Assembly (NCBI GenBank): GCA_021202895.1
Contig: JAJQCE010000029.1
Span: 9,664-73,663 of the forward strand
Direction: 5' to 3'
Length of the DNA stretch: 64,000 bases
DNA from: Ruminococcus sp.
GTDB lineage: Bacteria > Bacillota > Clostridia > Oscillospirales > Ruminococcaceae
The notes beneath the pieces were generated by a model. The model was not told the origin of the DNA and did no database searches. It worked only from the letters and a program-made list of their open reading frames with translations. Made by a program: the position numbers and the translations under genes. Positions 28,449 to 49,134 of the stretch are shown here, piece after piece (within the stretch, counting starts at the first letter, position 1; each line of letters starts with the position of its first letter).

Positions 28449-28456
28449 GACGCTGT

Positions 28457-28795
28457 TTAGCTTTTGATTGTTGCCTTTTTGGTGGTGAAGTAGGAATAAA
28501 CCGAAACTGATCAATAGTGAATGCTATCCCAACAAGTCCCTTTGTCACCCAAAATACTTAGCACCCTCATCAGAACAGTTTTACGTGCAGCAATTCTAAA
28601 TTTATAAACGGTAGCTTTCTTCATGCCTGTAACTATATATGAAGTATCCGAGGGGTCAGCATAATCAATAGTTCCCCACATTTTTGAACTCGAATCATAC
28701 TGTTGAATACAGTATCCACCACACTTGACCTTGTTCCACTTTAAAGTGACAGTGGTTTTTGTCTTTGTCGCAGTAACGTTAGTAACTTTTTTTGT
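28457..28795 (-). pseudogene. 3' fragment of a fibronectin type III-domain surface protein
   Basis: Minus frame reads KVTNVTATKTKTTVTLKWNKVKCGGYCIQQYDSSSKMWGT...GMKKATVYKFRIAARKT, then shifts frame, ending YFTTKKATIKS*; no usable start or 5' part. Confidence 0.7.
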
Positions 28796-28980
28796 GTAGT
28801 CACAGCAACATACGTTTTACTCTTATTTGTTTATTTCAAGAAGAAAAAATAGAGATTGCAATCATGTGTGATTTCAAATTTAACTTGGAACATAAAATTG
28901 CAGTTGTATTCAAAAACGAAAAATTTTTCAAGATTGGTCAACAGGATATTATCCCTTGAAAATACACCTGACTTGCTGCC

Positions 28981-29022
28981 AAAAAGACTGCTATTTTGCA
29001 AAGAGAAAACAGCAGTCTTTTT
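28981..29022. terminator. Terminator of the siroheme operon
   Basis: AAAAAGACTGCT...AGCAGTCTTTTT inverted repeat. Confidence 0.7.
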
Positions 29023-29045
29023 AATCACAGTTAATCGTACAATAG

Positions 29046-30305
29046 TTATCGAAATTTAGAAATCACATCACAAGTATAATCAATGTCATCATCGCTGTGA
29101 GCAATTGACACAAACATTGCCTCAAATTGAGAGGGTGCACTGTAAATTCCGTTATCGAGCAAATAGCAGCAGAAGCGAGCAAACTGCGCTGTATTGCAGG
29201 AAGATGCATCATCAAAGTTTTTCACCTTGCGCTCGGTAAAAAAGGGAGTTATAAGCGAGCCAACACGATTGACATTTAAACCGATAAAAGTCATAGCATC
29301 CTCGATTTTCTTAGATTTTTGTTCAAGCTCTAAATAAATGCTTTCATTCTTCTCAAGTGCTTTAATTGTAGCAGATCCAGCCGATACGGCTACGGGATTT
29401 CCAGACAAAGTACCCGCCTGATAGACTGAACCTAGCGGAGCGACTGTATTCATGATATCCTCACGTCCCCCATAAGCGGCAAGCGGCATGCCGCCTCCTA
29501 CAATTTTGCCAAGCGTGGTTAAATCCGCATTGACACCATAAAGCTGCTGAGCTCCGCCAATCGAAAGTCGAAAACCTGTTATAACCTCATCAAAAATAAG
29601 TATACAATTATACTCGTCTGATAACTCTCTTAATTGCTTTAAAAAGCCCTTTTCAGGCGGTACAACACCCATGTTCGCAGCTACGGGTTCGACAATTATA
29701 CAGGCAATCTCGTTGCCGTGACATTCGAGGATTTTTTTTACACTAGAAATGTCGTTGTATCTTGCAAGAAACGTGTTCTCGGCATATCCGTCGGGTACTC
29801 CACTACTGCTTGGCATTGAATTTGTCATCAATCCAGAACCCGCTTTTACAAGCAATCCGTCGGAATGTCCGTGATAGCAACCCTCGAACTTTATAATTTT
29901 ATCACATCCTGTAAATCCTCTTGCAGCACGTATAGCACTCATCACAGCCTCTGTCCCTGAATTGACAAGACGCAATTTTGACATAGACGGAAAGTGCTTC
30001 TTAATAAGTTCGACAAGCTCGATTTCTCCCTCATGACAAGCTCCAAAGGTGAGACCCTTCTGGGCGGAAGAAATGACAGCGTTAATAACCTCACTGTAGG
30101 CGTGACCTAAGATGTTAGGTCCCCATGAGCATACATAATCGATGTACTCGTTACCGTCAACGTCGTAGATTTTTGAGCCGTTTGCACGATCAATGAAAAC
30201 TGGATTTCGCCCTATTGATTTGCATGCTCGTACAGGACTGTTGACACCTGCGGGCATAAATTCACACGCTTTTTGGTAAAGCTCATCTGATTTGCTAGTT
30301 GTCAT
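29046..30305 (-). CDS. hemL: Glutamate-1-semialdehyde 2,1-aminomutase
   Basis: PAGVNSPVRA, NSGTEA, GCYHGH, FDEVITGFR, LGKIVGGG, QAGTLSGNP. Confidence 0.96.
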   Translation of the reverse strand: MTTSKSDELYQKACEFMPAGVNSPVRACKSIGRNPVFIDRANGSKIYDVDGNEYIDYVCSWGPNILGHAYSEVINAVISSAQKGLTFGACHEGEIELVELIKKHFPSMSKLRLVNSGTEAVMSAIRAARGFTGCDKIIKFEGCYHGHSDGLLVKAGSGLMTNSMPSSSGVPDGYAENTFLARYNDISSVKKILECHGNEIACIIVEPVAANMGVVPPEKGFLKQLRELSDEYNCILIFDEVITGFRLSIGGAQQLYGVNADLTTLGKIVGGGMPLAAYGGREDIMNTVAPLGSVYQAGTLSGNPVAVSAGSATIKALEKNESIYLELEQKSKKIEDAMTFIGLNVNRVGSLITPFFTERKVKNFDDASSCNTAQFARFCCYLLDNGIYSAPSQFEAMFVSIAHSDDDIDYTCDVISKFR

Positions 30306-30306
30306 T

Positions 30307-31275
30307 TTAATTCTCCTCATCAATCCATTTTGCGGCATCAAGTGCATGGTACGTTATAATTATATTTGCACCCGCACGTTTTATTGACGTTAAATTCTCC
30401 ATTACAACACGCCTTTCGTCAATCCATCCAAGCTGAGCTGCCGCCTTTACCATTGAGTACTCACCACTGACGTTGTAGGCGGCAAGCGGTAAGTCGAAAC
30501 GCTTAGATGCTTCGTGAACAATATCAAGATAGGGCAACGCAGGCTTTACCATAACCATATCCGCACCTTCGTCAATGTCATCAGAAATTTCTCTTAATGC
30601 TTCCCTTGCGTTAGCGGAATCCATTTGGTAGGTTCTTCTGTCACCAAAAGCGGGAGCGGACTCAGCTGCATCTCTAAAAGGTGTGTAATACACGGATGCA
30701 AATTTTGCACTGTATGCCATGATTGGTGTGTATACAAAGCCATTTTCATCAAGAGATCTGCGAATAGCTGCAACTCGCCCATCCATCATGTCTGACGGGG
30801 CAATAATGTCCGCTCCTGCCTTAGCCATGCTAACTGCCATTTCACAAAGAAGAGGAAGTGTTTGGTCGTTTAGTATTACACCATCCTTTACAACTCCGCA
30901 ATGTCCATGTGAAGTGTACTCGCAAAGACAAATATCAGCAATTACCAAAAGCTTAGGAAATTCAGATTTTATGTATCTTATCGCACGCTGAGTAATTCCG
31001 TTGTCATCATATGCACTTGTTGCCAGCTCATCCTTTTCATTCGGTATTCCAAAAATTAAAACTCCCGAAATCTCACTATCTGATACCTGTTTAATAAGTT
31101 CATATAAATTGTCCAAAGGATATTGAAATATTCCTGGCATAGAGTCAATCGGTTTCTTTTCAATTATGCTATCTGAAACAAACATAGGATAGATAAGTTC
31201 GCTTTTTGAAAGTCTTGTTTCTCTCACCAATTCTCTCATTGCATTACTTGTTCTAAGTCTTCTAAATCTGCGCAT
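30307..31275 (-). CDS. hemB: Porphobilinogen synthase
   Basis: [38 protein letters not shown]. Confidence 0.97.
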
Positions 31276-32749
31276 TATTGTTCTTCCTTTTGATTAGAAA
31301 TATAGTATTTTCTATGCTTTCCACGGATGAACTTTTTGAAATTGATATGTTTTTTACTTTTCTTTTCTCAAGCTCATTTTGAGTAGGCTTCCCAATACAA
31401 ATTGCATATGAATCGTCATTTACTTTACCACCCATTTCAAAGAAAGCTCTAACTCCAGCAGTGCTTGCAAAAATATAATATTTGCAGTTTTGGGGAGGAT
31501 TTAGCTGCAAAGCCTTTGTTTCATATACTTTTATGTCTTCATAGCACATATTACTATTGTCCAAAATTTTGGTCAGATCGTCCGAACCATTTTTGGCTCT
31601 TGCAATTAGTATTTTTTCACTTTTATCAAATCTTTCGCATAACATCTGAGCAAGCTTTTTTGATGTAGCAACGTCAGGTATGAAATCCGTAAATATTCCA
31701 TGCTTCTCAATTGCTCTAGCAGTACTTTTACCAACAGCCGCAAGCTTAATATTGCTAAGTCTGCGCAAATCTATGCACTCTTTTACAAGTGCCTCAAAGA
31801 ATGCTTCGACTCCGCTGGCGCTTGTAAAGGCAGCACATCTAAAGCTCTCTATATTCTGCAAAGCTGCTTTTAAACTGGGATTATCTGCTTTCTTAATAAT
31901 TTCAAGGCACGGCAGAGAAAGAACATTTGCTCCGTCATTTTCAAGTAGCTTTGACATCCTATTTACTATGTTTTGACTTCCCGTAACGCACACGCTTACT
32001 CCGCTTAGTTTCTTATTTAATTTTGTAGTCAGTTCAAGCTCGGCAGTCTTTCCGACAACGAAAACTGCGGGAGGCTCGAGTTCCTCTTCTGAAACCACCC
32101 TTGCAATATCACAAAGAGGTGCCCTAACAACCTTTTGTCTTGATGTCGCACCATTTGAAATTACAGCAGACGGTGTAGCTTTGTCCACTCCATTTAAAAT
32201 AAGATTGTCCGCAATTTGCATTATTTTTTTTAGTCCCATCATAAATACAAGTGTTCCGTCACTGCTTGCAAGCCGTGAAAAATCATCTGGAAAATCATTT
32301 CGCATAGTATTTGCTGTAATGACCTCGAAGGATCTGCTCACATCTCTGTGTGTAACAGGAATTCCCGCAAGCTCAGCAGCGGCAATTGCCGATGAAATTC
32401 CAGGCACTATCTCAAAATCTATGTTAGCTTGCTTTAGCGCAATCGCTTCCTCTCCGCCACGTCCAAAAACAAACGGATCTCCACCCTTAAGACGCACTAC
32501 ATTCTTGCCTTTCATGGCATTTTTTATTATCAAGCTGTTAATCTCTTCCTGAGTAGAACTGTACTTTCCAGCACGTTTGCCTACAGAAAATTTTTCGGCT
32601 TTTTTAGCAAAAGACAAAAGACGAATATCAATTAATGCATCGTAAATTACCACATCACATTCGCCCAAAATCTGCATTCCTCTTACAGTTATAAGGTCAT
32701 AATCACCACAGCCTGCGCCTACAAGTGAAACTCTTCCCATTTGACTCAT
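31262..32749 (-). CDS. cobA: Uroporphyrinogen-III C-methyltransferase / synthase fusion (CobA-HemD)
   Basis: [30 protein letters not shown]; C-terminal FTSASGV and AVGKSTA HemD-like domain. Confidence 0.92.
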
Positions 32750-33609
32750 AGCTGTCTCACCAGCCTTTCAATAAGCTTATATCGATTTTCCAACAAATCC
32801 TCTCCAAAGGCTCTATTAAAGCCGTCAGATGTTATCCTGACAGTTATTTTTTGCTCATCTGCTACAGAGTAAACGCCAATTGGCATAGAACAATCTGCAT
32901 CAAGCAGAGATAAAAGATACCTTTCTGTGTCAAAGCTAATATGAGTTTTGGCATTATCAATTTTCTTTAGCAACTCACAGACTTTGCTGTCTTTTCTAGC
33001 TTGAATCGCAATTATTCCTTGACAGGGTGCAGGTAAAAATTCATCTGGACTAAATCTTTTTATTTTTAATCCATCACGCTTGCTAAAACCTAAACGTTCC
33101 AACCCAGCTGCTGCAAGCATTATCGCATCAAATTCACCTTCACGCAGCTTTTGTATACGTGTGTCAACATTCCCTCTGATATCACCAAAGGATGCGAGCG
33201 GATAAAAGCTTAAAAGCTCTCGTATTCTGCGCAAGGAGCCTGTGCCAACTGAAAATAAATCATCTGCTGCTGGCTCAAACTCCTCAAGCGTCACAAGCGC
33301 ATCCCGACAATCACCTCTAGGAAGAACAGCGCAAATATCTGTTCCATCAGCAAGCTTAAGCGGCAAATCCTTTGCACTGTGAATGGCTATATCAGCATTT
33401 TCGCTAAGAAGTGCTTCTTCCACATTTCTAACAAAGATTCCTTGAGTATTAAAATTTGAAAGAGACGTTTTTTGATCAATATCCCCTGGCGATTTTATAG
33501 TCTTAATCTCAAAGTTCAAGTCCAAAAAAAAGGACTTTAAAGCATCTATAACGATTTCACACTGTTTAAGCGAGAGTTTAGATCCTCTTGCTACAATTGT
33601 TATTTTCAT
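32746..33609 (-). CDS. hemC: Hydroxymethylbilane synthase
   Basis: RGSKLS, GD, HSAKDLP, GTGSLRR, RGNVDTR, LAAAGLERLG, PAPCQG. Confidence 0.95.
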   Translation of the reverse strand: MKITIVARGSKLSLKQCEIVIDALKSFFLDLNFEIKTIKSPGDIDQKTSLSNFNTQGIFVRNVEEALLSENADIAIHSAKDLPLKLADGTDICAVLPRGDCRDALVTLEEFEPAADDLFSVGTGSLRRIRELLSFYPLASFGDIRGNVDTRIQKLREGEFDAIMLAAAGLERLGFSKRDGLKIKRFSPDEFLPAPCQGIIAIQARKDSKVCELLKKIDNAKTHISFDTERYLLSLLDADCSMPIGVYSVADEQKITVRITSDGFNRAFGEDLLENRYKLIERLVRQL

Positions 33610-34216
33610 TTTTTCCTTCCTCAAGCAGCTTTAAAACTTTTTCTTTCGCTTTTGATTTTTTCTCATTCATACATATCTCAAAAATAAGCGATATAATGTG
33701 ATTTTTTGTTTTTGTATCTGAATATATTTCTTGTAAGTCTTTGCGATACTCTCCCAAAATTTCTACAGCGAAAGACAAATTATCGGTCAAAACATCATCA
33801 ATTTTTTCTCTTACAAATGATGAAACAAATGGACTTTTCCCATTTGTAGTTACCGCTGCAGTTATATCTCCGTTTTTTGATATAGCGGGAAAAATAAAGC
33901 TGCATTTTTCTTTATCGTCAACGGTATTTATAAGAATATTTTCGTCCTGACAAAGTCTGAAAATATACTCATTTAATTGCTCATCATCGGTTGCAGCAAT
34001 AACGCAAAAAGCATTTTTAATATCCTTGTCAGAAAACTCTCGTTTATGAACAGTAACGTCTAGTTTTCCAAATTCTTCACATACATCCTTAGCGACAATT
34101 TTAATTTTTGCACCAAATTCCATAAGCTTTTGAGCCTTTCTGTAGGCCACCTTTCCGCCGCCTACAACTAAAATCTCTTTGTCACATACATCTATAAAAA
34201 ACGGAAAATAGCTCAT
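33578..34216 (-). CDS. Precorrin-2 dehydrogenase / sirohydrochlorin ferrochelatase (SirC/Met8/CysG N-terminal type)
   Basis: YFPFFID, LVVGGGKVAYRK, IAATDD, NTVD...FIFP. Confidence 0.9.
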   Translation of the reverse strand: MSYFPFFIDVCDKEILVVGGGKVAYRKAQKLMEFGAKIKIVAKDVCEEFGKLDVTVHKREFSDKDIKNAFCVIAATDDEQLNEYIFRLCQDENILINTVDDKEKCSFIFPAISKNGDITAAVTTNGKSPFVSSFVREKIDDVLTDNLSFAVEILGEYRKDLQEIYSDTKTKNHIISLIFEICMNEKKSKAKEKVLKLLEEGKNENNNCSKRI

Positions 34217-35346
34217 TTGTTTTGCTCCTCTAAAAGTTTTGATAAGGCTGTCAGAACTGCGTCAAACTGCGAGAATTCAAGACTTGACTTTAACGTGATA
34301 ATTAGTTTCCTTGCATCTATCTGCCTCTCACAAATTTGATTTAAAGTCGGCTGAAAACTATGATAAGCAAGTTCCTTTTCCAATTCATTAGTCTTAAGAT
34401 GAATTATTTCCTTTGCGGACAAAGCGATTTTTTCTTTTCGTTTGTTGTTTTGCTCCGCCATATTTTTAAAGTCATCAATGGTAAGAAGCTTCACTCCTTC
34501 GATTGTTTTTACATGCGAATCGATGTCGGGCGGCACGGCTAAATCTATAAAAAGCCTTGACTTTTCCTCTTTAATTGCATTATCTATCTCATTGTAATTT
34601 AGCGTGTAATGTGGTGCGTTAGTTGCACTTATAACGCAATCCATTTTGTCAATCAGCTTGTATCTGTCCGAAAAATCGTACAGCTTTACTCCCAGCTCTT
34701 TTGCAAGCTCTATATCCCTATTTCTGCTTCTCGTAGTAGCATAAGCTGTTACATTTTTATGTGCAATTAGATTTTTTAGAGTAGAAAGTCCAATCTTTCC
34801 GGTTGCACCGATCACAAGCGCATTAACAGCTGTATTTGTGAATTTTGCAGCAGCATTTGCCGCAAGTGTTGCTATAGAAACTGGGATAGTCGAAAGAGAA
34901 GTGCTTGTCTTTATTTTCTTGGCACAGGCAAATGCCGTTTGAAAAATCATGTTAAACTGTGAGGATACACAGCCACATTCGTTTGCGTTTTCGTAAGCCT
35001 CTTTAAGCTGCCGCAATATTTCATCCTCGCCTATCACCATCGAATCAAGACCAGCTGCAAGAGAAAATAAATGCTCTATCGCCTGGTGTCCACAAAATCG
35101 CATTACATACGGCCCAAGCTCATTTTCTTCAAAGTTCCCTATCTTAGAAAGAACGTGCGATATTTCTTCCCAATATTCTCCTTCAAAATAAATCTCAGTG
35201 CGATTGCAGGTACAAAGCATTACACATTCATTAGTGAAACTTGATTTTATTTTTTCGATAAGTTTGACTTGCTCACTCTTGCTCAACGCAAGCTGACTTC
35301 TAATTTTCTGTGGAGCAAGCTTATAGTTTATACTAGTGCAGTTCAT
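34213..35346 (-). CDS. hemA: Glutamyl-tRNA reductase
   Basis: LCTCNRTEIY, GLDSMVIGEDEILRQLK, IGATGKIG, DLAVPPDI. Confidence 0.93.
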   Translation of the reverse strand: MNCTSINYKLAPQKIRSQLALSKSEQVKLIEKIKSSFTNECVMLCTCNRTEIYFEGEYWEEISHVLSKIGNFEENELGPYVMRFCGHQAIEHLFSLAAGLDSMVIGEDEILRQLKEAYENANECGCVSSQFNMIFQTAFACAKKIKTSTSLSTIPVSIATLAANAAAKFTNTAVNALVIGATGKIGLSTLKNLIAHKNVTAYATTRSRNRDIELAKELGVKLYDFSDRYKLIDKMDCVISATNAPHYTLNYNEIDNAIKEEKSRLFIDLAVPPDIDSHVKTIEGVKLLTIDDFKNMAEQNNKRKEKIALSAKEIIHLKTNELEKELAYHSFQPTLNQICERQIDARKLIITLKSSLEFSQFDAVLTALSKLLEEQNK

Positions 35347-35379
35347 TTATTTCATCCTTGCCTTATACAAAATTTATTT

Positions 35380-35417
35380 CCTACTAAAATTATAGCACTT
35401 TATTTTTCGTTTGTCAA
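35380..35417 (-). promoter_or_regulatory. sigmaA promoter of the hem/siroheme operon with Rrf2-type box
   Basis: TTGACA (35412-35417)-17-TATAAT (35389-35394); CCTAC-TAAAATT-ATAGC at 35380-35396. Confidence 0.75.
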
Positions 35418-35460
35418 TATAAAAGCAGTCCGACACATTTAAAACATCAACTGCGAAGGG

Positions 35461-35898
35461 TTATGCTTTTGTCGCAACCTTTTTTACCTCATGCACTAAT
35501 GTATCAACCTGTTGAGCGTTATTAAACACGTTTAGAGAAAAACGGTACTGTACCTTGTTCGAGAGCATCAAGCGTTTGGTGGGCAAGTGTGGCGCAGTGC
35601 AGATAAAATCAAAACCATCCGAAAACGATATATTCAAAAGCTCCGCCGTATTGCTTAATCCCTTTTACAGCCATTTTGAGTGCCAAGGTAGAGTTTGAAG
35701 TAAAAATTGTATTTTCAGTCAATGCTCCATACATCTCAGCTGCGGACTCACGCACGTTAAATACCTATCCAGCAGTCATAACAGAAAGAGCATGTCCACC
35801 CTTTCTAAGGATTACCGCCATATTTTGTTATAGCTTGATTTACTGCAGCACGAACAGATGCAGAGGAATGCTATAGTCGAATTGTCAAAGTTAATCAA
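35461..35898 (-). pseudogene. Heavily deleted cysteine desulfurase-family (class V aminotransferase) relic
   Basis: RBS + TTG LINFDNST; SVRAAVNQAITKYGGNP; GGHALSVMTAG*VFNVRESAAEMYG..ENTIFTSNST.AL.MAVKG; FDFICTAPH; LEQGTVP; NVFNNAQQVDTLVHEVKKV; about 440 bp, several frameshifts and stops. Confidence 0.75.
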
Positions 35899-35984
35899 TA
35901 CCTTTCACCTCTTTTTTTACAACAAATGTGATTAATAAATACAATTATCTTTATTATAATATGAAAAAGAGGGAATTTAAGTTA

Positions 35985-36031: not shown

Positions 36032-36049
36032 TATGTTTAGAGACGGTTT

Positions 36050-37549: not shown

Positions 37550-37550
37550 G

Positions 37551-40549: not shown

Positions 40550-40565
40550 TGTAATCAACTCCTAA

Positions 40566-41360: not shown

Positions 41361-41373
41361 AACGCATTCCTCC

Positions 41374-42441
41374 TTAAATGTAGTAAATTGTGCTGTCATC
41401 GATAAAGCTGTTTGATACAACCTCGGTTTTGTCACCATCTATCGTGTACAGCTTTTTGATAAGCACCTTGACTTCGTCGCCCTTCTTAAGCCTTGTGGCG
41501 TTAAGGTCGTATCTTCCCGTGACAGACATGCTGTCTATGTTTACTTTGACCTCAAATGCGTTCCCTCTAAAGAACACATCCTCTACTATGCCATTCTCCA
41601 TAGAGCTTTCGTATTGATGATGCCCATTGTCCGTAAACTTGTTTATCTCAATAAACTCAGGACGAATTACCGCCGAAGCTTTGCTGTCCGAACCAGAAAA
41701 GCCCTTTAATCTGCCATAATCGGTGATTATCGCCGATTGTCCGATAAACTGAGCGACAAATGGTGTTTTCGGGTTAAGATAAATCTCAGCGGGATTTCCA
41801 ACCTGTTCGACCTTACCAAGGTTTGTTATGACAATTTCATCCGCCACCTCGATAGCCTCATCTTGATCGTGGGTTACAAAGATGCTTGTAATTCCGATTT
41901 TATCAATCGTCTCTCTAAGCCATGTTCTTAGCTCTTTTCTTACCTTTGCATCAATCGCCGCAAACGGTTCGTCCAAAAGAAGAAGCTCAGGCTCGGGAGC
42001 TAAGGCTCTTGCTAGTGCAATTCTCTGACGCTGACCGCCGCTAAGCTGCTCGGGATAACGTTTTTCAAGTCCCGGAAGACCAACAAGATCGAGCAACTCG
42101 GCAACACGATTTCTAATTGTTTCTTTATCCTTTTTTTGAACCTTTAGACCGTAAGCTATGTTATTGTACACATTCATATAAGGAAACAGCGCATAGTTTT
42201 GAAATACAAAGCCTATTCCTCTCTCGCTTGAAGGAAGATCGTTGACGACCTTGCCGCCGATTGAAATATCTCCGCTGTCCTGATGTTCAAGTCCCGCTAT
42301 CATTCTAAGGATAGTTGTTTTGCCGCTTCCTGATGGTCCCAGCAAGCCGATTAATTTTCCCTTCTCGATGCCAAAGGTAACGTCACTTGATGCCTTGCAA
42401 TCGCCAAATGTCTTGTTTACATTGTTTAACTCAATATACAT
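41374..42441 (-). CDS. cysA: ABC ATPase of the CysA (sulfate/thiosulfate) type
   Basis: GPSGSGKT, ERGIGFVFQNYALF, LSGGQRQR, LLLDEPFAAIDAKVRKELRTWLR, C-terminal TOBE-like region. Confidence 0.85.
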   Translation of the reverse strand: MYIELNNVNKTFGDCKASSDVTFGIEKGKLIGLLGPSGSGKTTILRMIAGLEHQDSGDISIGGKVVNDLPSSERGIGFVFQNYALFPYMNVYNNIAYGLKVQKKDKETIRNRVAELLDLVGLPGLEKRYPEQLSGGQRQRIALARALAPEPELLLLDEPFAAIDAKVRKELRTWLRETIDKIGITSIFVTHDQDEAIEVADEIVITNLGKVEQVGNPAEIYLNPKTPFVAQFIGQSAIITDYGRLKGFSGSDSKASAVIRPEFIEINKFTDNGHHQYESSMENGIVEDVFFRGNAFEVKVNIDSMSVTGRYDLNATRLKKGDEVKVLIKKLYTIDGDKTEVVSNSFIDDSTIYYI

Positions 42442-42564
42442 AATAACCAACTCCGAATTATTTTACTGTTGTTAGTTGTTTCAAATCTGATCTTAAGTCA
42501 ACATCGCTTGCTTTTAATAAAGATCTGTACCATAAAGTTTGACCCCCTTTTAATTCATACCTTT

Positions 42565-42621
42565 TCGATATGATTAGTATGTTTATAATTATAAACCCAT
42601 TTTTCCGATATGTCAATAGGG
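42565..42621 (-). promoter_or_regulatory. sigmaA consensus promoter of the cysA-ssuCA-ASST operon with two Rrf2-type boxes
   Basis: TTGACA (42611-42616)-17-TATAAT (42588-42593); boxes at 42605-42621 and 42565-42581. Confidence 0.8.
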
Positions 42622-42707
42622 TTTTTGAAAATTTGTGATAACTCACAAATAAAAAAGAATATATCGCAAAATTTTTAGACAGAATAACCCAAAATAACAA
42701 TTAGCTA

Positions 42708-42763
42708 TTGACAAATCAACTGAAATAATATATAATAAGTATAAATCATATTAATCGAATATG
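42708..42763 (+). promoter_or_regulatory. sigmaA consensus promoter of the thioredoxin gene with palindromic box
   Basis: TTGACA (42708-42713)-17-TATAAT (42731-42736); CATAT-TAATCGA-ATATG at 42747-42763. Confidence 0.78.
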
Positions 42764-42789
42764 AAAAGTATAGTTAGGAGATGAAAAGC

Positions 42790-43104
42790 ATGATTACTGA
42801 GCTTACAACCAGCACATTTGACGAAATAACCTCAACCGACAAACCTGTGGTGATAGAATTTTACTCGCCGACCTGTGTTCACTGCAAGAGAATGGAGCCA
42901 GGACTTAACGAGGTTGCCGACGAGCAAGAAAACGACGCAGTTATTACCAGATGTGACATCACAACCTCGCCTGAGCTTGCGCAGCGCTATGACATCACTG
43001 CCGTTCCGACAACGCTCTTTATAAAAAACGGTGAAATTAAGGACAAGCTTGTGGGATTTACACATAAGCTGATAATTTCCCAGGGTATTGAAAAGCTAAA
43101 GTGA
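42790..43104 (+). CDS. Thioredoxin family protein (CVHC)
   Basis: EFYSPTCVHCKRM, cis-Pro VPT, GEIKDKLVG; start 42790 or 42781. Confidence 0.9.
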   Translation: MITELTTSTFDEITSTDKPVVIEFYSPTCVHCKRMEPGLNEVADEQENDAVITRCDITTSPELAQRYDITAVPTTLFIKNGEIKDKLVGFTHKLIISQGIEKLK

Positions 43105-43116
43105 GCAAAATTTAAT

Positions 43117-43148
43117 GGGAACCGAAATTCAAATCGGTTCCCTCTTTT
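43117..43148. terminator. Bidirectional terminator between trx and trxB
   Basis: GGGAACCGA/TCGGTTCCC 9-bp stem plus T run. Confidence 0.75.
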
Positions 43149-43158
43149 TGTATAGTAT

Positions 43159-44058
43159 TTAAAGACTTCTAAGATAATTCTCAGCGCTTGTTACGGCATT
43201 TGCTCCGTCAGCGGCTGCGGTTATCACCTGTCTAAGGGGTGTGGTTCTCACATCTCCCGCAGCAAACAAGCCCTTGGCATCGGTAGCTCCGTCCTCACCT
43301 GCAATGATATATCCGAAGCTGTCAAGTGAACAAACTCCTTTTAAAAGCTCGGTGTTCGGCAGACTTCCAAGTGCGCAGAAAACACCGTCTATCTTTAGCG
43401 TGTCAATAGAGCCGTTTCGGTTTAACACGAGCTCTTCAGCTTTGTCGCCTCCGTTTACCTTAGTCACAGTAGTGTTTAGTATAAACTCAATGTTTTCAAC
43501 AGCATTCACCTGTGCTTGTAAGCTTTTGTTTGCCCTAAATTCATCTCTTCTGTGGATTAGATAGACCTTCTTAGCAATCTTTGATAGGTAAGCTGCATCT
43601 CCAAGCGCAGTATCTCCGCCACCTATGACGGCTACAATCTTGTTTTGATAGAAAGCTCCGTCACATACCGCACAGTAGGATACACACTGTTTTTCACTCC
43701 CCTCAACGCCAAGTCTGCGGTAGGATGTTCCCGCAGCGTAGATAATAGCCTTAGCTTCAAGTACCCTTCCGTCTGAAAAGGTTACCGCCCAATAGTCACT
43801 TTCCTTTGCTATTGCTTTAGCCTCGCCGTCATAGAACTCAGTTCCCAAAGCTAAAGCATGCTCACGAAAACCCTCGCCTAAATCATATCCTGATACTCCG
43901 TAAAGCCCAGGATAGTTTTCTACACGCTCACTTACCGAAATCTGTCCCGTACCCATATAGTCTTTTTCGACCACCACGGCGTTTAGCATAGCGCGCTTAG
44001 CGTAAATTGCAGCCGTAAGTCCAGCAGGTCCGCTGCCTATTATAATTATGTCATACAT
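43159..44058 (-). CDS. trxB: Thioredoxin-disulfide reductase
   Basis: GSGPAGLTAA, VSYCAVCDG, GGGDTA, HRRDEFRA, FAAGDV. Confidence 0.93.
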   Translation of the reverse strand: MYDIIIIGSGPAGLTAAIYAKRAMLNAVVVEKDYMGTGQISVSERVENYPGLYGVSGYDLGEGFREHALALGTEFYDGEAKAIAKESDYWAVTFSDGRVLEAKAIIYAAGTSYRRLGVEGSEKQCVSYCAVCDGAFYQNKIVAVIGGGDTALGDAAYLSKIAKKVYLIHRRDEFRANKSLQAQVNAVENIEFILNTTVTKVNGGDKAEELVLNRNGSIDTLKIDGVFCALGSLPNTELLKGVCSLDSFGYIIAGEDGATDAKGLFAAGDVRTTPLRQVITAAADGANAVTSAENYLRSL

Positions 44059-44070
44059 AACAATTCCTCC

Positions 44071-44523
44071 TCAAATATAGTACATAGGTTCGCTTGCATT
44101 ATTTTCAAGCTCCTTCTCATAACGCTCGGCAAGATCTGCCACCGTAACCGACATAGCGCAGTCCGACATATACCTTTCTATTTTGTTCCACAAAAGCTCA
44201 TTTATCACGTCAGAGAAACCATTGTTTTCGTTTCCGATCTCGGGAACATCGTTGTTTAAAAGCGACGATTCAAGAGCGTTTATCACTTCATTAAGCGTAA
44301 TATCCTCTGCCCTTTTAGAGAGAATATACCCGCCTCCTGAGCCTTTTTGTCCCTTAATTAGATGTGAATGGCGAAGTGACGAGAGTATCTGCTCGAGGTA
44401 CTTTTCAGAAATACCCTGCCTTCCTGAAATGCTGATAACAGTGACCGTTTTTCCATTCCGTGCATTGATTGCAATGTCAGTAATTGCCAAAATTCCACAC
44501 TCAACCTTTGTTGAAATTTTCAT
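44071..44523 (-). CDS. Rrf2 family transcriptional regulator (CymR-like, no IscR Cys triad)
   Basis: MKISTK, ISEKYLEQIL..L, KGSGGGYIL, ITLNEVINALE, LW. Confidence 0.92.
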   Translation of the reverse strand: MKISTKVECGILAITDIAINARNGKTVTVISISGRQGISEKYLEQILSSLRHSHLIKGQKGSGGGYILSKRAEDITLNEVINALESSLLNNDVPEIGNENNGFSDVINELLWNKIERYMSDCAMSVTVADLAERYEKELENNASEPMYYI

Positions 44524-44545
44524 GTGTGCCTCCTTTCACTCAATT

Positions 44546-44590
44546 CCTATCTGCTTAATATAGTATAACTGATTTTTTTGAGATTGTCAA
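44546..44590 (-). promoter_or_regulatory. sigmaA promoter of rrf2-trxB with autoregulatory box
   Basis: TTGACA (44585-44590)-17-TATACT (44562-44567); box CCTAT-CTGCTTA-ATATA at 44546-44562 flanked by AATT. Confidence 0.72.
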
Positions 44591-44683
44591 CCCCCCTACA
44601 GCCTTATGGCAGCCTAATAAATTTAACAAAAAATCATAAATTTATCGGCGAATTTTTGTGCATTTCGTAGAATTCATTGTTTT

Positions 44684-44716
44684 CCTATTGACTTTGTAGG
44701 AAATTCAGTGTATAAT
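44684..44716 (+). promoter_or_regulatory. sigmaA promoter of the metY(pseudo)-sulfite reductase-sulfur carrier operon with box over -35
   Basis: TTGACT (44688-44693)-17-TATAAT (44711-44716); TTTCCTAT-TGACTTT-GTAGGAAA. Confidence 0.78.
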
Positions 44717-44779
44717 AAACATTAGAATTTAAATCAGCTCTTTTTCACAAAAAAATCAAGGTGAATGAGGTCACAACAA

Positions 44780-45896
44780 CGGACTTTAATACCGCACTAC
44801 TGCACAAGTCTTTTTTTGGAGAAAAACAGACTGGAGCTACGACGAACCTATCTGCCAAACTGACTAGTTTGCACACAAATCCGCACAATGGCTAGAGAAA
44901 ATATTTAATAACAAGGCTAATGGATATGCCTACACACGTATTGTAAATCCTAACTGTGTCCTCATTTGAAAACCGCATTGCAGCTATTGAGGGCGGAATT
45001 TCTGTGATTGCTTGCTCGTCAGGTTCGGTTGCAGTGGCAATGTCAATACTAAACATCGTTTTAGCTGTAGATGAAATTATTTCCAGCAGTGCGCTCTATG
45101 GCGGCACTCTCAACCTTTTCGGTGGTCTTAGGTCTTTCGGAATTGAAGTAAAGTATGTAAACGAGGCAATTCCTGATCTTATCAAGCCGCTTATCATCGA
45201 CAGCACCACAGCTACACCTTACATATTATAACCGATAGAGCTTGGAGATGATATTGCAGTTCATTCCTCATCTAAGTAGATAAACGGCGGCGGAAATTCA
45301 GTCTGCGGAGTTATCGTAGACAGCGGAAGGTACAAGTGGTTCTTTGATAAACACCCATCACTTTCAAAATATAGAAAATTTGGTGGTTTTGCCTACACCG
45401 CAAGCCTAAAGAACGGCATCTGGAGAGATGTAGGATGCTGCCCTGCTCCGATGACTGGCTTTTATGAACAGCGTAGGGCTTGAAACGCTCAGTCTTAGAA
45501 TGCAGCAATGCTGCGACAATGCGCCAAGGCTTGCCAAACACCTAGAGAGCAAAGGACTTTCGGTAAACTATCCTGCTCCTAAGTCCTCTCCCTACTATAT
45601 AATATCATACGAAGCTAGCTTAACGGCAATGGCGGAGCTGTTTTTACGTTTCGCATGGAAAGCAAGGAGAAGGCATTTAAGCTTTTAGGCTCGCTTGAAT
45701 ACTCGATAATTGCATCCAACATGGCGATGTAAGAACGCTTGTTATTCACCCTGCGAGTACGCTCTTTGCGCACAGTGATGAAACGGAAAAGTAAACGTCA
45801 GGAGTTTATGAGGATACTATTAGGGTGAGTGCGGGTATTGAAGATATTGAAGAGTTAATAGATGACTTTAATAGAGCATTTGCACTTTATAACTAA
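44780..45896 (+). pseudogene. metY: O-acetylhomoserine sulfhydrylase (MetY/CysD family) pseudogene
   Basis: Fragments FNTALLH, YAYTRIVNP, FENRIAAIEGG..IACSSG, LYGGT, LIIDSTTATP, HSSSK*INGGGNS (stop right after PLP Lys), GLETLSLRMQQCCDNA, IRVSAGIEDIEELIDDF; internal deletion and several frameshifts; 5' boundary approximate. Confidence 0.88.
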
Positions 45897-45910
45897 CAGG
45901 AGGAATTAAG

Positions 45911-46774
45911 ATGGCAGTAGATTATGCAACGCTCAAAAAGGGCGGATTTATGAGACAAAAGCAGAAGAACAACTTTTCACTAAGACTAAGAGTTGTAGGA
46001 GGAAACCTTACAGCTAAGCAGCTTGCAAAGATTGCCCAGGTTTCTGAAAAGTACGGTGACGGTCATGTACATCTCACCTCACGTCAGAGTGTAGAGATAC
46101 CGTTTATCAAGCTTGACGACATAGATGAGGTAAAAGCTGCTCTTGCCGAGGGAGATGTTTCACCTGGAGTCTGCGGACCTAGGGTGCGTACCATTACCGC
46201 CTGTCAGGGAGAGGCAATTTGCCCGAGCGGATGTATCGACACCTATAAGCTTGCTAAAGAGCTTGACGAACGCTACTTTGCAAGAGAGCTTCCGCACAAG
46301 TTTAAGTTTGGCATTACGGGATGTCAGAACAACTGCCTAAAGGCTGAGGAAAACGATCTCGGCATAAAAGGAGCGCTCAAGGTAAAGTGGAAGAAGGACA
46401 GCTGTATTCAATGCGGAGTCTGTCTTAAGGCTTGCCGCACGCAGGCTCTAAGCCTTGAGGATGGCAGGATAGATCTCGAGGAGGGCAAGTGCAATTTCTG
46501 TGGAAGATGCGTAAAGGCTTGTCCTGCGGATGCGTGGGATGTTACAAGCGGCTACATAGTTTCATTCGGAGGAATTTTTGGCAACAATATAAGCAAGGGC
46601 GAGGCTATCATTCCGTTTATAGACGACCACGACAAGCTCATGAGCGTTTGCGATGCGGCGATTAGCTTCTTTAATGAGAACGCACTTGCAGGCGAGAGAT
46701 TTAAGTTTACCATAGACAGGGTAGGCAAGGACAAATTTGAGCAAAGGATTTTGGAGGCGTATAACAATGGCTGA
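45911..46774 (+). CDS. Siroheme/[4Fe-4S] sulfite reductase-like protein (AsrC/Dsr fold, with 2x[4Fe-4S] ferredoxin insert)
   Basis: LRLRVVGG, HLTSRQSVEI, TACQGEAIC and GCQNNC siroheme-cluster Cys, CIQCGVC/CNFCGRC ferredoxin motifs, GERF. Confidence 0.88.
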   Translation: MAVDYATLKKGGFMRQKQKNNFSLRLRVVGGNLTAKQLAKIAQVSEKYGDGHVHLTSRQSVEIPFIKLDDIDEVKAALAEGDVSPGVCGPRVRTITACQGEAICPSGCIDTYKLAKELDERYFARELPHKFKFGITGCQNNCLKAEENDLGIKGALKVKWKKDSCIQCGVCLKACRTQALSLEDGRIDLEEGKCNFCGRCVKACPADAWDVTSGYIVSFGGIFGNNISKGEAIIPFIDDHDKLMSVCDAAISFFNENALAGERFKFTIDRVGKDKFEQRILEAYNNG

Positions 46775-47012
46775 GTTTAACATTGACGACACGGTGGACA
46801 TCACCGACGTGGTTTGCCCGACCACATTTGTAAAGGCTAAGGTAGCTCTTGAGGAACTAGAAGAGGGCGAGGTGCTTTCAATAAAGATGAATGACGGTGA
46901 GCCTGTACAGAACGTGCCAAGAAGCATAAAGGAAGAAGGACATCGGATTTTAAAGCTCATCGATAACGAGGACGGCACATATAATCTTATTGTCAGAAAG
47001 GTCGGTGATTAA
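46767..47012 (+). CDS. TusA/SirA-family sulfurtransferase
   Basis: VDITDVVCPTTFVKAKVALEELEEGEVL.I...G....NVPRS. Confidence 0.9.
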   Translation: MAEFNIDDTVDITDVVCPTTFVKAKVALEELEEGEVLSIKMNDGEPVQNVPRSIKEEGHRILKLIDNEDGTYNLIVRKVGD

Positions 47013-47327
47013 ATGGCTGTAAAGGTAAATGCGGACTGCTTCGAAAGCGAAGTCTTGTCGGCTGAAGAGGTTGTGCTTGTTGACTTTTACTCCGATTCGT
47101 GCGTACCATGCAAGCGAATAGCTCCGCTGCTTTCGCAGATCGAGCAGGAGAACGAGAGCATAAAGCTTGCAAAGCTAAACATAAACTTTGACCAAGAGAC
47201 TGCCAAGGCTTACGGTGTGACTGCTGTTCCTACGCTGGTGCTTTTTAAAGGCGGAAAGGAAAAGGCTAGGCTTGTCGGCAGCGTAAAAAAGGAAACGATT
47301 GAGGAAGCAATAAATTCTATAGACTAA
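47013..47327 (+). CDS. Thioredoxin family protein (CVPC)
   Basis: VDFYSDSCVPCKRI, VPTL.LFKGG. Confidence 0.9.
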   Translation: MAVKVNADCFESEVLSAEEVVLVDFYSDSCVPCKRIAPLLSQIEQENESIKLAKLNINFDQETAKAYGVTAVPTLVLFKGGKEKARLVGSVKKETIEEAINSID

Positions 47328-47339
47328 GGAGAGATTGAT

Positions 47340-47546
47340 ATGAAAATCAAAGTTGCAGGAGTTAAGAAGGAAAAAGAAGAGGGTATTACCGTTGCAAAGC
47401 TTATCGAGGAAGAAAAGGTGGAAACACCTGAGTATGTAACTGTTACGGTAAACGATGAGTTTTTAAAGAGCGGCACATTTGAGCAGACTGTGCTTAAAGA
47501 TGGTGACGAGGTCGAGTTTCTCTACTTTATGGGAGGCGGCAGATAA
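47340..47546 (+). CDS. ThiS/HcyS-like sulfur carrier protein ending GGG-R
   Basis: 68 aa, VTVTVNDEF, LKDGDEVEFLYFMGGGR. Confidence 0.92.
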   Translation: MKIKVAGVKKEKEEGITVAKLIEEEKVETPEYVTVTVNDEFLKSGTFEQTVLKDGDEVEFLYFMGGGR

Positions 47547-48355
47547 TGGCTTTTACAAACGAACAGATAGAGCGTTACTCTCGCCACATCATACTAAAAG
47601 AGGTCGGCGCAAAGGGGCAAAAAAAGCTTTTAAATGGGAGCGTACTTATAATCGGAGCAGGGGGTCTCGGTGCACCTGCGGCGATGTACCTTGCGGCAGC
47701 GGGAATAGGAAGGATTGGAATTGCGGACGCTGACGAAGTGGATCTTTCTAACCTACAGCGTCAGATTATTCACGCTACCGAAGACGTAGGCAAACCAAAG
47801 GTCATCTCGGCTAAGGAAACGATAGAACGTATGAACCCTGATGTTAAGGTGGAAACCTACCAGACATTTGTAAGCAGTGAGAACATAATGGAGCTTATCA
47901 AGGACTATGACTTTATCATTGACGGCACGGACAACTTCCCTGCTAAATTTTTAATCAATGATGCCTGCGTCATGGCAAAGAAGCCTTTTTCACATGCGGG
48001 TATCATACGCTTTAAAGGACAGCTTATGACCTATGTTCCAGGACAGGGGCCGTGCTACAGATGCGTGTTTAAGAACCCTCCCCCAAAGGATGCGGTGCCT
48101 ACCTGCAAGCAGGCAGGAGTAATCGGTGCTATGGGCGGCGTTATCGGAAGTCTTCAGACTATGGAGGCGGTAAAGTACATCCTGGGAGTAGGAGATCTTT
48201 TGACAGGGTATCTGCTTACATACGATGCTCTGAAGATGGATTTTAGAAAGGTAAAGCTTCCGAGCAATACAAGCGAATGTGCGGTTTGCGGTGAACATCC
48301 CACGATAAACGAGCTTATCGACTACGAGCAGACGGAGTGTGACGGTGCGCTATGA
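47546..48355 (+). CDS. ThiF/MoeB/HesA family adenylyltransferase (HcyF-like)
   Basis: RYSRHI, IGAGGLG, D.D.VDLSNLQRQ, DGTDNF, CYRC and CAVC Zn sites. Confidence 0.93.
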   Translation: MAFTNEQIERYSRHIILKEVGAKGQKKLLNGSVLIIGAGGLGAPAAMYLAAAGIGRIGIADADEVDLSNLQRQIIHATEDVGKPKVISAKETIERMNPDVKVETYQTFVSSENIMELIKDYDFIIDGTDNFPAKFLINDACVMAKKPFSHAGIIRFKGQLMTYVPGQGPCYRCVFKNPPPKDAVPTCKQAGVIGAMGGVIGSLQTMEAVKYILGVGDLLTGYLLTYDALKMDFRKVKLPSNTSECAVCGEHPTINELIDYEQTECDGAL

Positions 48356-48777
48356 TTAGACTTAAACAGGATGACTATGATAAGATTTTAGCATATGCCA
48401 AAAGCGAGCTGCCAAATGAAGCCTGCGGGCTTATTGCTGGAAGTGAAACCGATCAGGGTGACAAGCTTGTCGAAAAAGTGTATCTTTTAACCAACATCGA
48501 CCACAGCAACGAGCACTTTTCGCTAGATCCTAAGGAACAGCTTGCCGCAGTGAAGGATATGCGCTCACTCGGTCTTAAGCCGCTTGGCAACTGGCACTCG
48601 CACCCCGAGTCGCCATCACGTCCCTCGGACGAGGACAAGCGTTTAGCCTATGACAGCAAGGCTAGCTACATGATACTCTCACTTATGCAGATAGACAGCC
48701 CTGTGCTAAACTCATTTAAAATAGAAGGCGATGTCTCTCAAAAGGAAGAGCTTGTGATAATAGGTGTCATTAAATGA
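48352..48777 (+). CDS. JAB/MPN (Mov34) metalloprotease (HcyD/Mec-like)
   Basis: NEACGLI and NWHSHPESPSRPSDED (HxH-x10-D). Confidence 0.92.
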   Translation: MIRLKQDDYDKILAYAKSELPNEACGLIAGSETDQGDKLVEKVYLLTNIDHSNEHFSLDPKEQLAAVKDMRSLGLKPLGNWHSHPESPSRPSDEDKRLAYDSKASYMILSLMQIDSPVLNSFKIEGDVSQKEELVIIGVIK

Positions 48778-49095
48778 CATAACTAATTTTTTATGTGGGG
48801 ATATATGGTGGTTGAGGTAATTCCTCACATGTCCCCACTTTAAATTTTTTCTAAAAAAACTACTCAATTGCGGACAATGGTTATGAGATAAAAAACACTT
48901 GATGAGAATAAGGCACGTGAGCTTGCAAGGATCTGCGGTTAAGAGATAAATGTGTGGTGGTCGGAAATACCCACACCACCTGTAAGGTCTTAGAAGTTGA
49001 CGATGAAGCCCGCCTTTAGGTGGAGTACGAGGACAAAACTAAAGCCAAGCACTATTCAGGCCATGTCGAGAGAATATTATTAGATTAAACAGACA

Positions 49096-49134
49096 TGTCT
49101 TTGCTCACAGTACAGTGAGCAAAGACACTATTTT
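49096..49134 (+). terminator. Strong hairpin at the right end of the sulfur island
   Basis: TGTCTTTGCTCAC/GTGAGCAAAGACA perfect 13-bp stem. Confidence 0.7.

Follow-up and report, generated by a model that had tools for sequence, protein, structure and literature searches.

The DNA examined here, a 64,000-nt window of contig JAJQCE010000029.1 (positions 9,664 to 73,663) from a Ruminococcus sp. genome, holds an island of sulfur-metabolism genes that includes two paralogues of arylsulfate sulfotransferase (ASST). A reading made from the sequence alone (the sequence-only reading) had proposed that ASST here takes the place of the activation step of sulfur assimilation, imported sulfate esters being reduced to sulfite with electrons from thioredoxin. 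Pfam and NCBIfam scans of every sizeable open reading frame (ORF) between 25.8 and 52 kb of the window recovered the gene inventory of that reading in full (importer, two ASSTs, two thioredoxins, thioredoxin reductase, siroheme operon, sulfite reductase, TusA, ThiS, ThiF and JAB), with all named genes lying where it had placed them. The functional span of the island is 29046-48777 in window positions, and its flanks are the housekeeping genes thyX, tmk and thrS.

The minus strand carries, in the order of transcription, genes for a CysA-like ATP-binding cassette (ABC) ATPase with a C-terminal extension (41374..42450; TIGR00968, PF00005), a TauC/SsuC-like ABC permease (40566..41438; PF00528) whose true start is probably near 41360 (the orthologue at the locus of the closest relative, L008, has 264 aa), an NMT1/SsuA-family lipoprotein that would serve as substrate-binding protein (SBP) (39503..40558; PF09084), a 176-aa accessory protein characterized by its predicted fold (38952..39482), ASST-2 (37551..38933; 460 aa; PF05935/PF14269) and ASST-1 (36050..37549; 499 aa), a beta-propeller protein of the ASST family as judged from PF05935/PF14269, conservation, hhalign and an AlphaFold2 (AF2) model. 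Divergent from the ATPase gene lies trxA1 (42781..43104, plus strand), encoding a thioredoxin with a CVHC active site (PF00085). It is followed on the minus strand by trxB, for a low-Mr thioredoxin reductase with a CAVC site (43159..44058; PF07992), and by a gene for a CymR-like regulator of the Rrf2 family (44071..44523; PF02082).

A plus-strand operon (44770-48777) begins with a pseudogene of metY, the O-acetylhomoserine sulfhydrylase gene (44770..45887; identified by comparison with the intact gene of L008), and continues with a small siroheme/[4Fe-4S] sulfite reductase (SiR; 45911..46774; PF01077, PF03460, Fer4) that carries an inserted 2x[4Fe-4S] ferredoxin domain. Then come a TusA-like sulfur carrier with a CPTT motif (46770..47012; weak matches to NF041048 and NF001423, E 1e-7 to 1e-4), the thioredoxin TrxA2 with a CVPC site (47013..47327; PF00085), a ThiS-like sulfur carrier ending in GGGR (47340..47546; PF02597, TIGR01683), a ThiF/MoeB-like adenylyltransferase (47546..48355; PF00899, 292 bits) and a JAB/Mec+-type protease that would trim the carrier C-terminus (48352..48777; PF14464), the last three genes being tightly spaced or overlapping. 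On the other side, a gap of ~700 nt separates ASST-1 from a minus-strand siroheme operon that runs from 35346 down to 29046: hemA, glutamyl-tRNA reductase (34213..35346; PF05201, PF01488), a sirC/CysG-N-like precorrin-2 dehydrogenase that is probably a chelatase too (33578..34216; PF13241 NAD_binding_7), hemC, porphobilinogen deaminase (32746..33624; PF01379), a cobA/hemD fusion of uroporphyrinogen-III methyltransferase and synthase (31262..32749; PF00590, PF02602), hemB, porphobilinogen synthase (30307..31275; PF00490, 501 bits) and, last, hemL, glutamate-1-semialdehyde aminomutase (29046..30347; PF00202, 234 bits).

The island has no sat, cysD, cysH or cysC, and the rest of the genome (2.10 Mb in 31 contigs, 99.5% complete) does not supply them. 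Genome-wide, there was no match to PF01747 (ATP sulfurylase), to PF01507 (PAPS_reduct, a domain common to CysH and CysD) or to PF01583 (adenosine 5'-phosphosulfate (APS) kinase), all of which were detected in control genomes. A full-genome search for sat, cysDN, cysC and cysH therefore agrees with what the sequence-only reading had seen in the island, and a complete activation set elsewhere, which would have spoken against it, was looked for and is absent. The island SiR is the sole NIR_SIR gene of the genome. Possible consumers of its sulfide are encoded: two cysK genes exceed the curated cut-off, and next to one of them lies a second gene of the MetY type, which is intact.

Both ASST paralogues pass the cut-offs of PF05935 (86 bits for ASST-1, 73 for ASST-2) and PF14269 (65 and 66 bits), and both begin with MGYP and have no hydrophobic leader, as the claim that they lack a signal peptide implied; this leaderless MGYP N-terminus is invariant in the ASST-1 clade. 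The AF2 model of ASST-1, built on a 34-sequence alignment, is a confident propeller (predicted local distance difference test, pLDDT, 86.6) with a tail of low confidence beyond about residue 440. Its top fold match in the PDB is Cpz4 (Foldseek E 2.7e-17, template modelling score 0.51-0.55), and PDB sequence searches with ASST-1 alone or with the family profile also returned only Cpz4, weakly, and never the E. coli enzyme (EcAST), which phmmer did not match to ASST-1 either. We aligned the ASST gene of E. coli CFT073 (L088:33858-35654) to the family profile by hhalign (87% probability), allowing for a 27-residue leader in the EcAST residue numbering. According to a 2026 review (PMC13426309), six residues make up the EcAST active site, namely His252, His356, Asn358, Arg374, Thr501 and His436, the last of which is sulfated transiently. 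In the alignment, His356 and Asn358 correspond to H210 and N212 of ASST-1 (motif DWMHIN), Arg374 to R240 (DAR) and the nucleophile His436 to H279 (GQHH). Across the family, each of these four residues is either invariant or conserved to 98% or more, so that the sulfuryl-transfer site of ASST-1 looks complete.

The ASST-1 clade has one further conserved feature, a cysteine on the C-terminal tail. Cys487 is the sole conserved cysteine, present in 191 of 198 homologues within a [DN]FC[VT]A motif, and is preceded by a variable acidic/Gly-rich linker. A search of 1.84 billion representatives gave distant relatives, 76 of them with a full ASST body at less than ~55% identity. Most of these (68/76) are extended at the N-terminus, mainly by a signal-peptide-like segment, and 60 of the 68 extended proteins have no cysteine past the propeller. 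In two proteins from the same search, P0124 and P0125, a leaderless ASST body is joined at its C-terminus to a thioredoxin domain (with CKNC and CLHC sites, respectively), and P0124 keeps the tail cysteine ahead of its thioredoxin domain. P0125 lacks counterparts of His113 and His210, and yet has the CLHC thioredoxin. A chimeric ASST-thioredoxin query designed to find fusions gave no matches.

ASST-2 is 63% identical to ASST-1 but departs from it where catalysis would be expected: a Thr replaces H210 and a Ser replaces H113, and the C-terminal 39 residues, including the tail cysteine, are missing. With a Thr at the position of EcAST His356, the active-site set of ASST-2 is not complete. The paralogue is nevertheless maintained, given its 86% identity to the L008 orthologue (91% for ASST-1), and from its sequence it is probably a partner or specificity subunit and not an independent catalyst. 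The 176-aa protein, which was modelled with a pLDDT of 89, resembles in its C-terminal half the LeuD/aconitase swivel domain (E 1e-4, ~100 residues, 2.3 Å) and has an invariant Cys57 in a D-x-C-P motif; a PDB sequence search with it gave no informative relative. It may be a thiol or sulfur-relay accessory, and its presence in only 5 of 78 related loci shows that it is not a core component.

Homologues of ASST-1 fill more than 7000 clusters at 90% identity in public data. The best 120 of these are 63-84% identical to ASST-1 and come, by source names, from Clostridia, Treponema, Coriobacteriales, Bifidobacterium and relatives of Lactococcus; in terms of habitat, again by source names, the clade belongs to gut, rumen and termite-gut Bacillota, Bifidobacterium, Coriobacteriia and Treponema. 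We scanned one genome per species, which gave 80 loci, and labelled their ORFs by BLAST against the window proteins. The shares that follow are from the 78 loci with ASST-1 called; as many contigs are short, they are minimum values. The importer was found within five genes of ASST-1 in 88% of loci and a thioredoxin within the same distance in 63%, immediately adjacent in 35%. The locus also held trxB in 40% of cases, SiR in 35%, ThiF or JAB in 27% and hem genes in 24%. Thioredoxins of the TrxA1 type have nearly all a C-x-H-C site (CVHC, CSHC, CAHC, CGHC, CPHC), and those of the TrxA2 type have CxPC or CxAC. The NMT1-type importer, ASST and a sulfite reductase occur together in three further settings, L001 (a chromosome of 4.2 Mb assembled from a metagenome), L002 (Pseudolactococcus reticulitermitis) and L003 (Bifidobacterium callitrichos), with siroheme genes beside them in L002 and L003, a thioredoxin in L001 and a thioredoxin reductase in L003. 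The reductase of L002 and L003 is of an unrelated, two-module CysI-like type. Altogether, this survey links the cytoplasmic ASST homologues to the importer, CxHC thioredoxins, TrxB, SiR and siroheme genes, a co-occurrence that the sequence-only reading had anticipated in part. One locus, L031 (CAVIFG010000030.1), is labelled 'Escherichia coli' and has an ABC-ASST cluster of the Clostridia type with an ASST-1 83% identical to that of the window; this bin is probably mislabelled or contaminated.

The locus was also compared with canonical assimilation clusters. Four of these (L089-L092) encode the same small reductase next to genes of the CysH and CysD types and an ABC transporter for sulfate; the transporter ATPase shares 53-57% identity with that of the window. 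L092 is the fullest, a single array of transporter, CysH, CysD, ThiS, ThiF, JAB, SiR and TusA; MetY, ThiF and JAB join the basic set in L091, and L089 and L090 have only transporter, CysH, CysD and SiR. In L094, from the one other carrier in our sample of the class, the genes run in a single direction as ATPase, permease, SBP, ASST-1, MetY, SiR, TusA, thioredoxin, ThiS, ThiF and JAB. The ABC-ASST set, with or without thioredoxin and TrxB, thus fills the slot of CysPTWA-CysH-CysD in an otherwise conserved MetY-SiR-TusA-ThiS-ThiF-JAB cluster, which is the classical signature of a non-orthologous replacement, here of the sulfite-producing step. The proposal that ASST replaces activation accordingly gains comparative support from several sides: the module displacement, the gene linkage, the conserved active-site residues, the tail cysteine, the thioredoxin fusions and the distribution of SiR across carrier genomes.

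This distribution was examined in genomes reached via the loci, since the clade is rare in its own class (3 of 301 sampled genomes) and co-occurrence by random sampling of the class was dropped for that reason. NIR_SIR was present in 48 of 49 carrier genomes; in an even sample of 300 genomes across the class, 63 had it. Of the 49 carriers, 23 gave no credible match to CysD, CysH or Sat, and in another nine PAPS_reduct occurred solely inside unusual proteins of 400-800 aa. Fifteen carriers have a canonical CysD (~190 bits, ORF of ~300 aa), and two Bacillaceae have CysH and Sat. Carriers with ASST inside a SiR-ThiS cluster are mostly without CysD (for example L047, L055, L057, L059-L062 and L082). 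Among carriers in culture, cysDN is missing from Blautia hansenii, Blautia sp. MSJ-9 and Pseudolactococcus reticulitermitis. The expected anti-correlation with cysDNH therefore held only in part, canonical activation being present in 17 carriers. In six genomes (G305, G308, G333, G337, G341 and G342), the PAPS_reduct domains lie only within proteins of 570-800 aa, and canonical CysH and CysD are missing.

The SBP scores 46 bits against the SsuA family model TIGR01728 (cut-off 163) and the permease 161 bits against the TauC model NF007545 (cut-off 342), while the ATPase just exceeds the cut-off of the sulfate-ATPase subfamily TIGR00968 (343.4 versus 342.75 bits). The three proteins match an organosulfur-type importer in their Pfam domains (PF09084, PF00528, PF00005), and the SBP and permease fall below the specific NCBIfam cut-offs. 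The best NCBIfam match of the permease is SaoP, of the selenoprotein-linked organometallic Sao system (bioRxiv 10.1101/2022.07.06.499078), but we rejected a Sao system, with scores far below the cut-offs. A hint comes from five related loci (L035:3428-9661, L052, L053, L056 and L076), in which an alkyl sulfatase of the SdsA1/BDS1 type (PF14863) and a DUF1254/DUF1214 protein are encoded inside the ABC-ASST cluster, which ties the importer to sulfate esters. We tentatively take the imported donor to be specifically a sulfate ester, a view we would put somewhat short of an even call, and the phenol and indole sulfates that had been suggested as substrates are a guess.

From these elements, we propose the following route. 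Through the SsuABC/AtsRBC-like importer, an organic donor of sulfuryl groups would enter the cell, with a sulfate ester as the likeliest candidate, and ASST-1 would take the sulfuryl group onto His279, as in characterised ASSTs. The group would then move from His279 to Cys487 on the flexible acidic tail, giving an S-sulfocysteine, and the CxHC thioredoxin TrxA1 would attack this thiosulfonate and free sulfite in a CysH-like manner, with TrxB and NADPH recycling TrxA1. The small SiR, with a cofactor from the adjacent hem/siroheme operon, would reduce sulfite to sulfide, which CysK or the second MetY-like enzyme could fix; in relatives with an intact metY, fixation would instead go through a relay of TusA, a ThiS thiocarboxylate, ThiF and JAB. 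All the chemistry of this route is inferred, and so are the import, the compound imported and the parts that ASST-2 and the 176-aa protein would play. That ASST-1 and thioredoxin yield sulfite from an imported sulfuryl donor appears to us probable, by a modest degree; that the leaderless, Cys-tailed ASST clade constitutes a previously unrecognised enzyme class, the thioredoxin-dependent sulfate-ester reductases, we regard as an evenly balanced proposition. The notion of an ATP-independent pathway applies to the activation step and does not extend to ABC import and ThiF, which still consume ATP.

The proposed route recalls several known systems, each in a different respect. In CysH, the catalytic cysteine sits on a mobile C-terminal tail, and thioredoxin frees sulfite from 3'-phosphoadenosine 5'-phosphosulfate (PAPS) or APS. 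By analogy, ASST-1 may capture the sulfuryl group on a mobile-tail cysteine and release sulfite at the expense of thioredoxin, and the two proteins would act at the same pathway step, directly upstream of SiR; their genes have the same slot in a conserved gene cluster. The folds differ, however (ATP-pyrophosphatase-like in CysH, a beta-propeller in ASST-1, which is not in PF01507), and so do the tail motifs (ECGLH versus [DN]FC[VT]A). As the proposal involves no nucleotide-linked substrate, ATP sulfurylase and APS kinase would not be needed. An enzyme of the ASST fold that performs CysH-like chemistry as part of an otherwise familiar assimilation cluster would be, as far as we could find, without earlier description, and it is so far an unproven suggestion from sequence comparison. 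A literature search found no paper that ties ASST to thioredoxin, sulfite or sulfite reductase, and no description of sulfate-ester reduction.

Among the ASST-family proteins, AssT of E. coli CFT073, which operates with DsbL/DsbI (PDB 3ELQ/3ETS), shares PF05935, PF14269 and the beta-propeller fold with ASST-1 and is likewise encoded beside a dedicated thioredoxin-fold partner. In contrast to AssT, ASST-1 has no signal peptide, is ~100 residues shorter and has importer and sulfite reductase genes linked to its own; its partners are reducing (CxHC thioredoxin and TrxB) where those of AssT are oxidising, its tail cysteine is invariant where EcAST lacks such a residue, and sequence similarity between the two is remote. 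Cpz4, the ASST-type sulfotransferase of caprazamycin biosynthesis in Streptomyces (PDB 9KF4/9KF6; ~470 aa), is the best match of ASST-1 in the PDB by both structure and sequence and is also a cytoplasmic family member. It is, however, a biosynthetic transferase, at most 20% identical to ASST-1, and has no known thioredoxin or SiR context.

The plus-strand operon is comparable to the thiocarboxylate clusters of Wolinella succinogenes (HcyS/HcyF/HcyD/MetY/Sir) and Mycobacterium (CysO/MoeZ/Mec+/CysM), with which it shares a ThiS-like carrier with residues past the Gly-Gly, a ThiF-like activator, JAB, a siroheme SiR, a TusA-like protein and metY in first position. Unlike them, the island has the ABC-ASST-thioredoxin set instead of sulfate-activation genes, and its metY is a pseudogene. 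The route through AtsRBC and sulfatases (atsA/atsK/sdsA1 in Pseudomonas, Bds1 in yeast) has in common with the island an SBP of the NMT1/SsuA family, a TauC-like permease and, presumably, control by sulfur starvation, and SdsA1-type genes occur in the five related clusters mentioned above. The difference lies in the product: sulfatases free inorganic sulfate, which needs activation by ATP, whereas the island would keep the group-transfer potential of the ester and make sulfite directly.

A number of observations weigh against this proposal. The alignment to EcAST spans residues 158-387 only, so that His252, which is outside the aligned part, and Thr501, which hhalign sets against I361 beside the invariant S362, have no confident placement. 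The SBP falls far under the SsuA cut-off, and a PDB sequence search with it gave no informative relative. We know of no precedent for the transfer of a sulfuryl group from a sulfohistidine to a protein thiol, and the chemistry proposed for the clade, which rests on comparative genomics, is unproven. In this genome, the island is decaying, metY and the pyridoxal phosphate (PLP) enzyme gene being pseudogenes, and TrxB may be there as a housekeeping gene, since the genome has no intact trxB other than that of the island. Canonical sulfate activation is also present in 17 of the 49 carriers, which makes the anti-correlation with cysD partial and not strict. Finally, 43 of the 61 SiR-positive, ASST-free genomes of the class have no PAPS_reduct (18 have one), their SiR being probably AsrC-type enzymes; SiR without activation is thus common in the absence of ASST, and the argument that ASST fills a gap is weak by itself.

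ASST-1 could alternatively be an ordinary sulfotransferase, moving sulfate between small acceptors or to an intracellular one and grouped here by a CymR-type regulon, in which case sulfite would come from the environment or from an unidentified sulfonate lyase and thioredoxin would just keep the cysteine reduced. Unrelated functions do come together in sulfur-starvation regulons, as the ssu, tau and ats genes show; SiR occurs in many Clostridia with neither sulfate activation nor ASST, and the TrxB of the island may be a housekeeping copy. The characterised ASSTs are all transferases, and according to a 2026 review the physiological roles of these enzymes are still poorly understood (PMC13426309). 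An ordinary transferase, however, supplies no assimilable sulfur, and it leaves unexplained the clade-specific invariant cysteine on a mobile tail, the dedicated adjacent CxHC thioredoxins and the thioredoxin fusions in cis, the linkage to two unrelated SiR types in three lineages, and the location of the set exactly at the CysH/CysD position. We consider this explanation unlikely.

The same machinery could also work on another donor, thiosulfate or an S-sulfonate (a Bunte salt or S-sulfocysteine). ASST-1 and thioredoxin would then form a thiosulfate reductase, with sulfide and sulfite as products that are both assimilated. HS- equals phenolate in leaving-group quality, and the ATPase is CysA-like, that is, of the sulfate/thiosulfate type (343 bits against TIGR00968, 53-57% identity to canonical CysA). 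The best family of the TusA-like protein, by a weak match, is TsuB/YeeD of thiosulfate utilisation, but TusA is found in canonical CysDH clusters too and is therefore not specific to this system. NMT1-family binding proteins include the oxyanion binders NrtA and CmpA; known thiosulfate importers, however, use proteins of the CysP/Sbp or YeeE types and not an NMT1 SBP with a TauC-like permease. The alkyl sulfatase genes in five clusters suggest esters, and the active site retains the full ASST constellation that is used on aryl sulfates. These points make a thiosulfate or S-sulfonate donor quite unlikely.

It might further be argued that in this genome, whether or not the family is active in others, the island is a decaying relic and the pathway dead. 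The SiR operon starts with the metY pseudogene, a PLP-enzyme pseudogene lies between ASST-1 and hemA, a truncated trxB is found elsewhere and the genome is small (2.1 Mb). The metY pseudogene has at least eight in-frame stops, one frameshift and deletions of 37 and 11 codons, with 72% DNA identity to the intact L008 orthologue, and metY is intact in relatives. Its loss leaves ThiS, ThiF and JAB without their usual acceptor enzyme, so that of the thiocarboxylate carrier system postulated by the sequence-only reading the ThiS/ThiF/JAB part is in place and the MetY partner is gone. Although metY is broken, its promoter and every downstream gene are intact. The second remnant (35464..35898, minus strand), in the gap between ASST-1 and hemA, was recognised by blastx against an intact L008 gene; it derives from a cysteine-desulfurase-like class-V PLP enzyme and shows stops, frameshifts and a large internal deletion. 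In L008 the intact gene encodes 375 aa and lies upstream of hemA, and the hem operon is inverted there relative to the ASST operon as compared with the window. Against a dead pathway, the 20 other genes of the island are intact, five promoters are perfect or nearly so, and ASST-1 and ASST-2 remain 91% and 86% identical to their L008 orthologues; CysK and the second MetY-like gene can use sulfide, and the genome has no other route to sulfite. A relic is, in our view, very unlikely.

That the importer takes C-sulfonates (taurine, isethionate, alkanesulfonates), which ASST-1 and thioredoxin would cleave reductively at the C-S bond as an oxygen-independent counterpart to SsuD and TauD, is hardly credible even though SsuA and TauC are the families nearest to the SBP and permease and Clostridia reportedly assimilate sulfonate sulfur anaerobically with unidentified enzymes (as Denger and Cook, and Chien and colleagues, are said to have described in the 1990s), because the conserved active-site residues are those of an enzyme that transfers O-sulfuryl groups by way of a nucleophilic His, a chemistry that leaves C-S bonds intact, because the co-located alkyl sulfatases suggest esters, and because AtsR, the sulfate-ester binding protein of Pseudomonas, belongs to the same SBP family.

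Should thioredoxin-dependent release of sulfite by ASST-1 prove true, textbook assimilatory sulfur metabolism would acquire a new entry step, in which thioredoxin alone pays for the conversion of ester to sulfite and the 2-3 ATP equivalents of sulfate activation are saved. Anaerobes could then enter sulfur assimilation without ATP sulfurylase, APS kinase or CysH, which would explain how SiR is fed without a sulfate-activating enzyme in about half of the carrier species, cultured gut Blautia included. It would also be the first physiological role for an enzyme of the ASST family. The candidate substrates would be aryl sulfates made by the host (p-cresyl, phenyl or indoxyl sulfate, for example), steroids and drugs in sulfated form, and phenol sulfates from plants, making these bacteria a microbial sink for sulfated host metabolites such as uraemic toxins, sulfated hormones and drug sulfates.

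The transcription units of the island may share their control in part. A consensus scan revealed five strong sigma-70 promoters, perfect or near-perfect, one ahead of each unit: hemA (35389..35417, minus strand; TTGACA-17-TATAAT, 12/12, with an extended TG), the ABC-ASST operon (42588..42616, minus; 12/12), trxA1 (42708..42736, plus; 12/12), rrf2-trxB (44562..44590, minus; 11/12) and the metY-SiR operon (44683..44716, plus; 11/12). A bidirectional terminator hairpin (43117..43142) lies between trxA1 and trxB. In 157 promoter regions of relatives, the commonest words extend the -35 box to CCTATTGAC(A), and when promoters are aligned on TATTGAC (46 sites: 20 ABC, 13 metY, 6 hemA, 5 trxA1 and 2 rrf2), those of the relatives show an AGGAAA-like element 4-5 nt downstream. 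In the window, this CCTATTGAC...AGGAA element is clear at two promoters, that of metY, with a full TTCCTATTGAC-N5-TAGGAA, and that of the ABC operon, where CCTATTGACA-N3-CGGAAA (CCTATTGACA...CGGAAA) runs across the -35 box and spacer; at the trxA1, hemA and rrf2 promoters it is degenerate. The GGAAT-type half-site resembles the Bacillus CymR box.

A candidate operator, TCCTA-N9-TAGGA (44683-44701), overlaps the -35 box of the metY-SiR promoter. A k-mer search with mismatches and an inverted-repeat search found no strict 17-bp palindrome across the promoters, and we discarded a palindromic operator common to all of them, as TCCTA-N(5-13)-TAGGA occurs only once, at 44683-44701. The Rrf2 protein itself meets the superfamily model but scores 83.6 bits against CymR (NF047409; cut-off 195) and 83.5 against IscR (cut-off 207). 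It has only two cysteines, at positions 9 and 122, and lacks the cysteine triad for an Fe-S cluster. These promoter sequences make it plausible that the ABC-ASST and SiR operons are regulated together; for the island as a whole, which had been described as co-regulated, the element holds at two promoters and is degenerate at the other three, with no strict palindrome in common.

On contig C4 (~41859-42600), a second rrf2, 57% identical to that of the island, is followed by the truncated trxB, a pair that has the look of a duplicated and then decayed rrf2-trxB unit, and a WCGPC thioredoxin of the normal type is encoded on contig C24. An 80-aa ORF in the divergent promoter region (42458-42700) had no family match and is taken as spurious. 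Control of the island by a riboswitch or T-box was dismissed, as an Rfam scan detected neither there. The only T-box of the window, a leader at 57178-57402, lies outside the island on the minus strand, together with four tRNA genes at 57440-58101.

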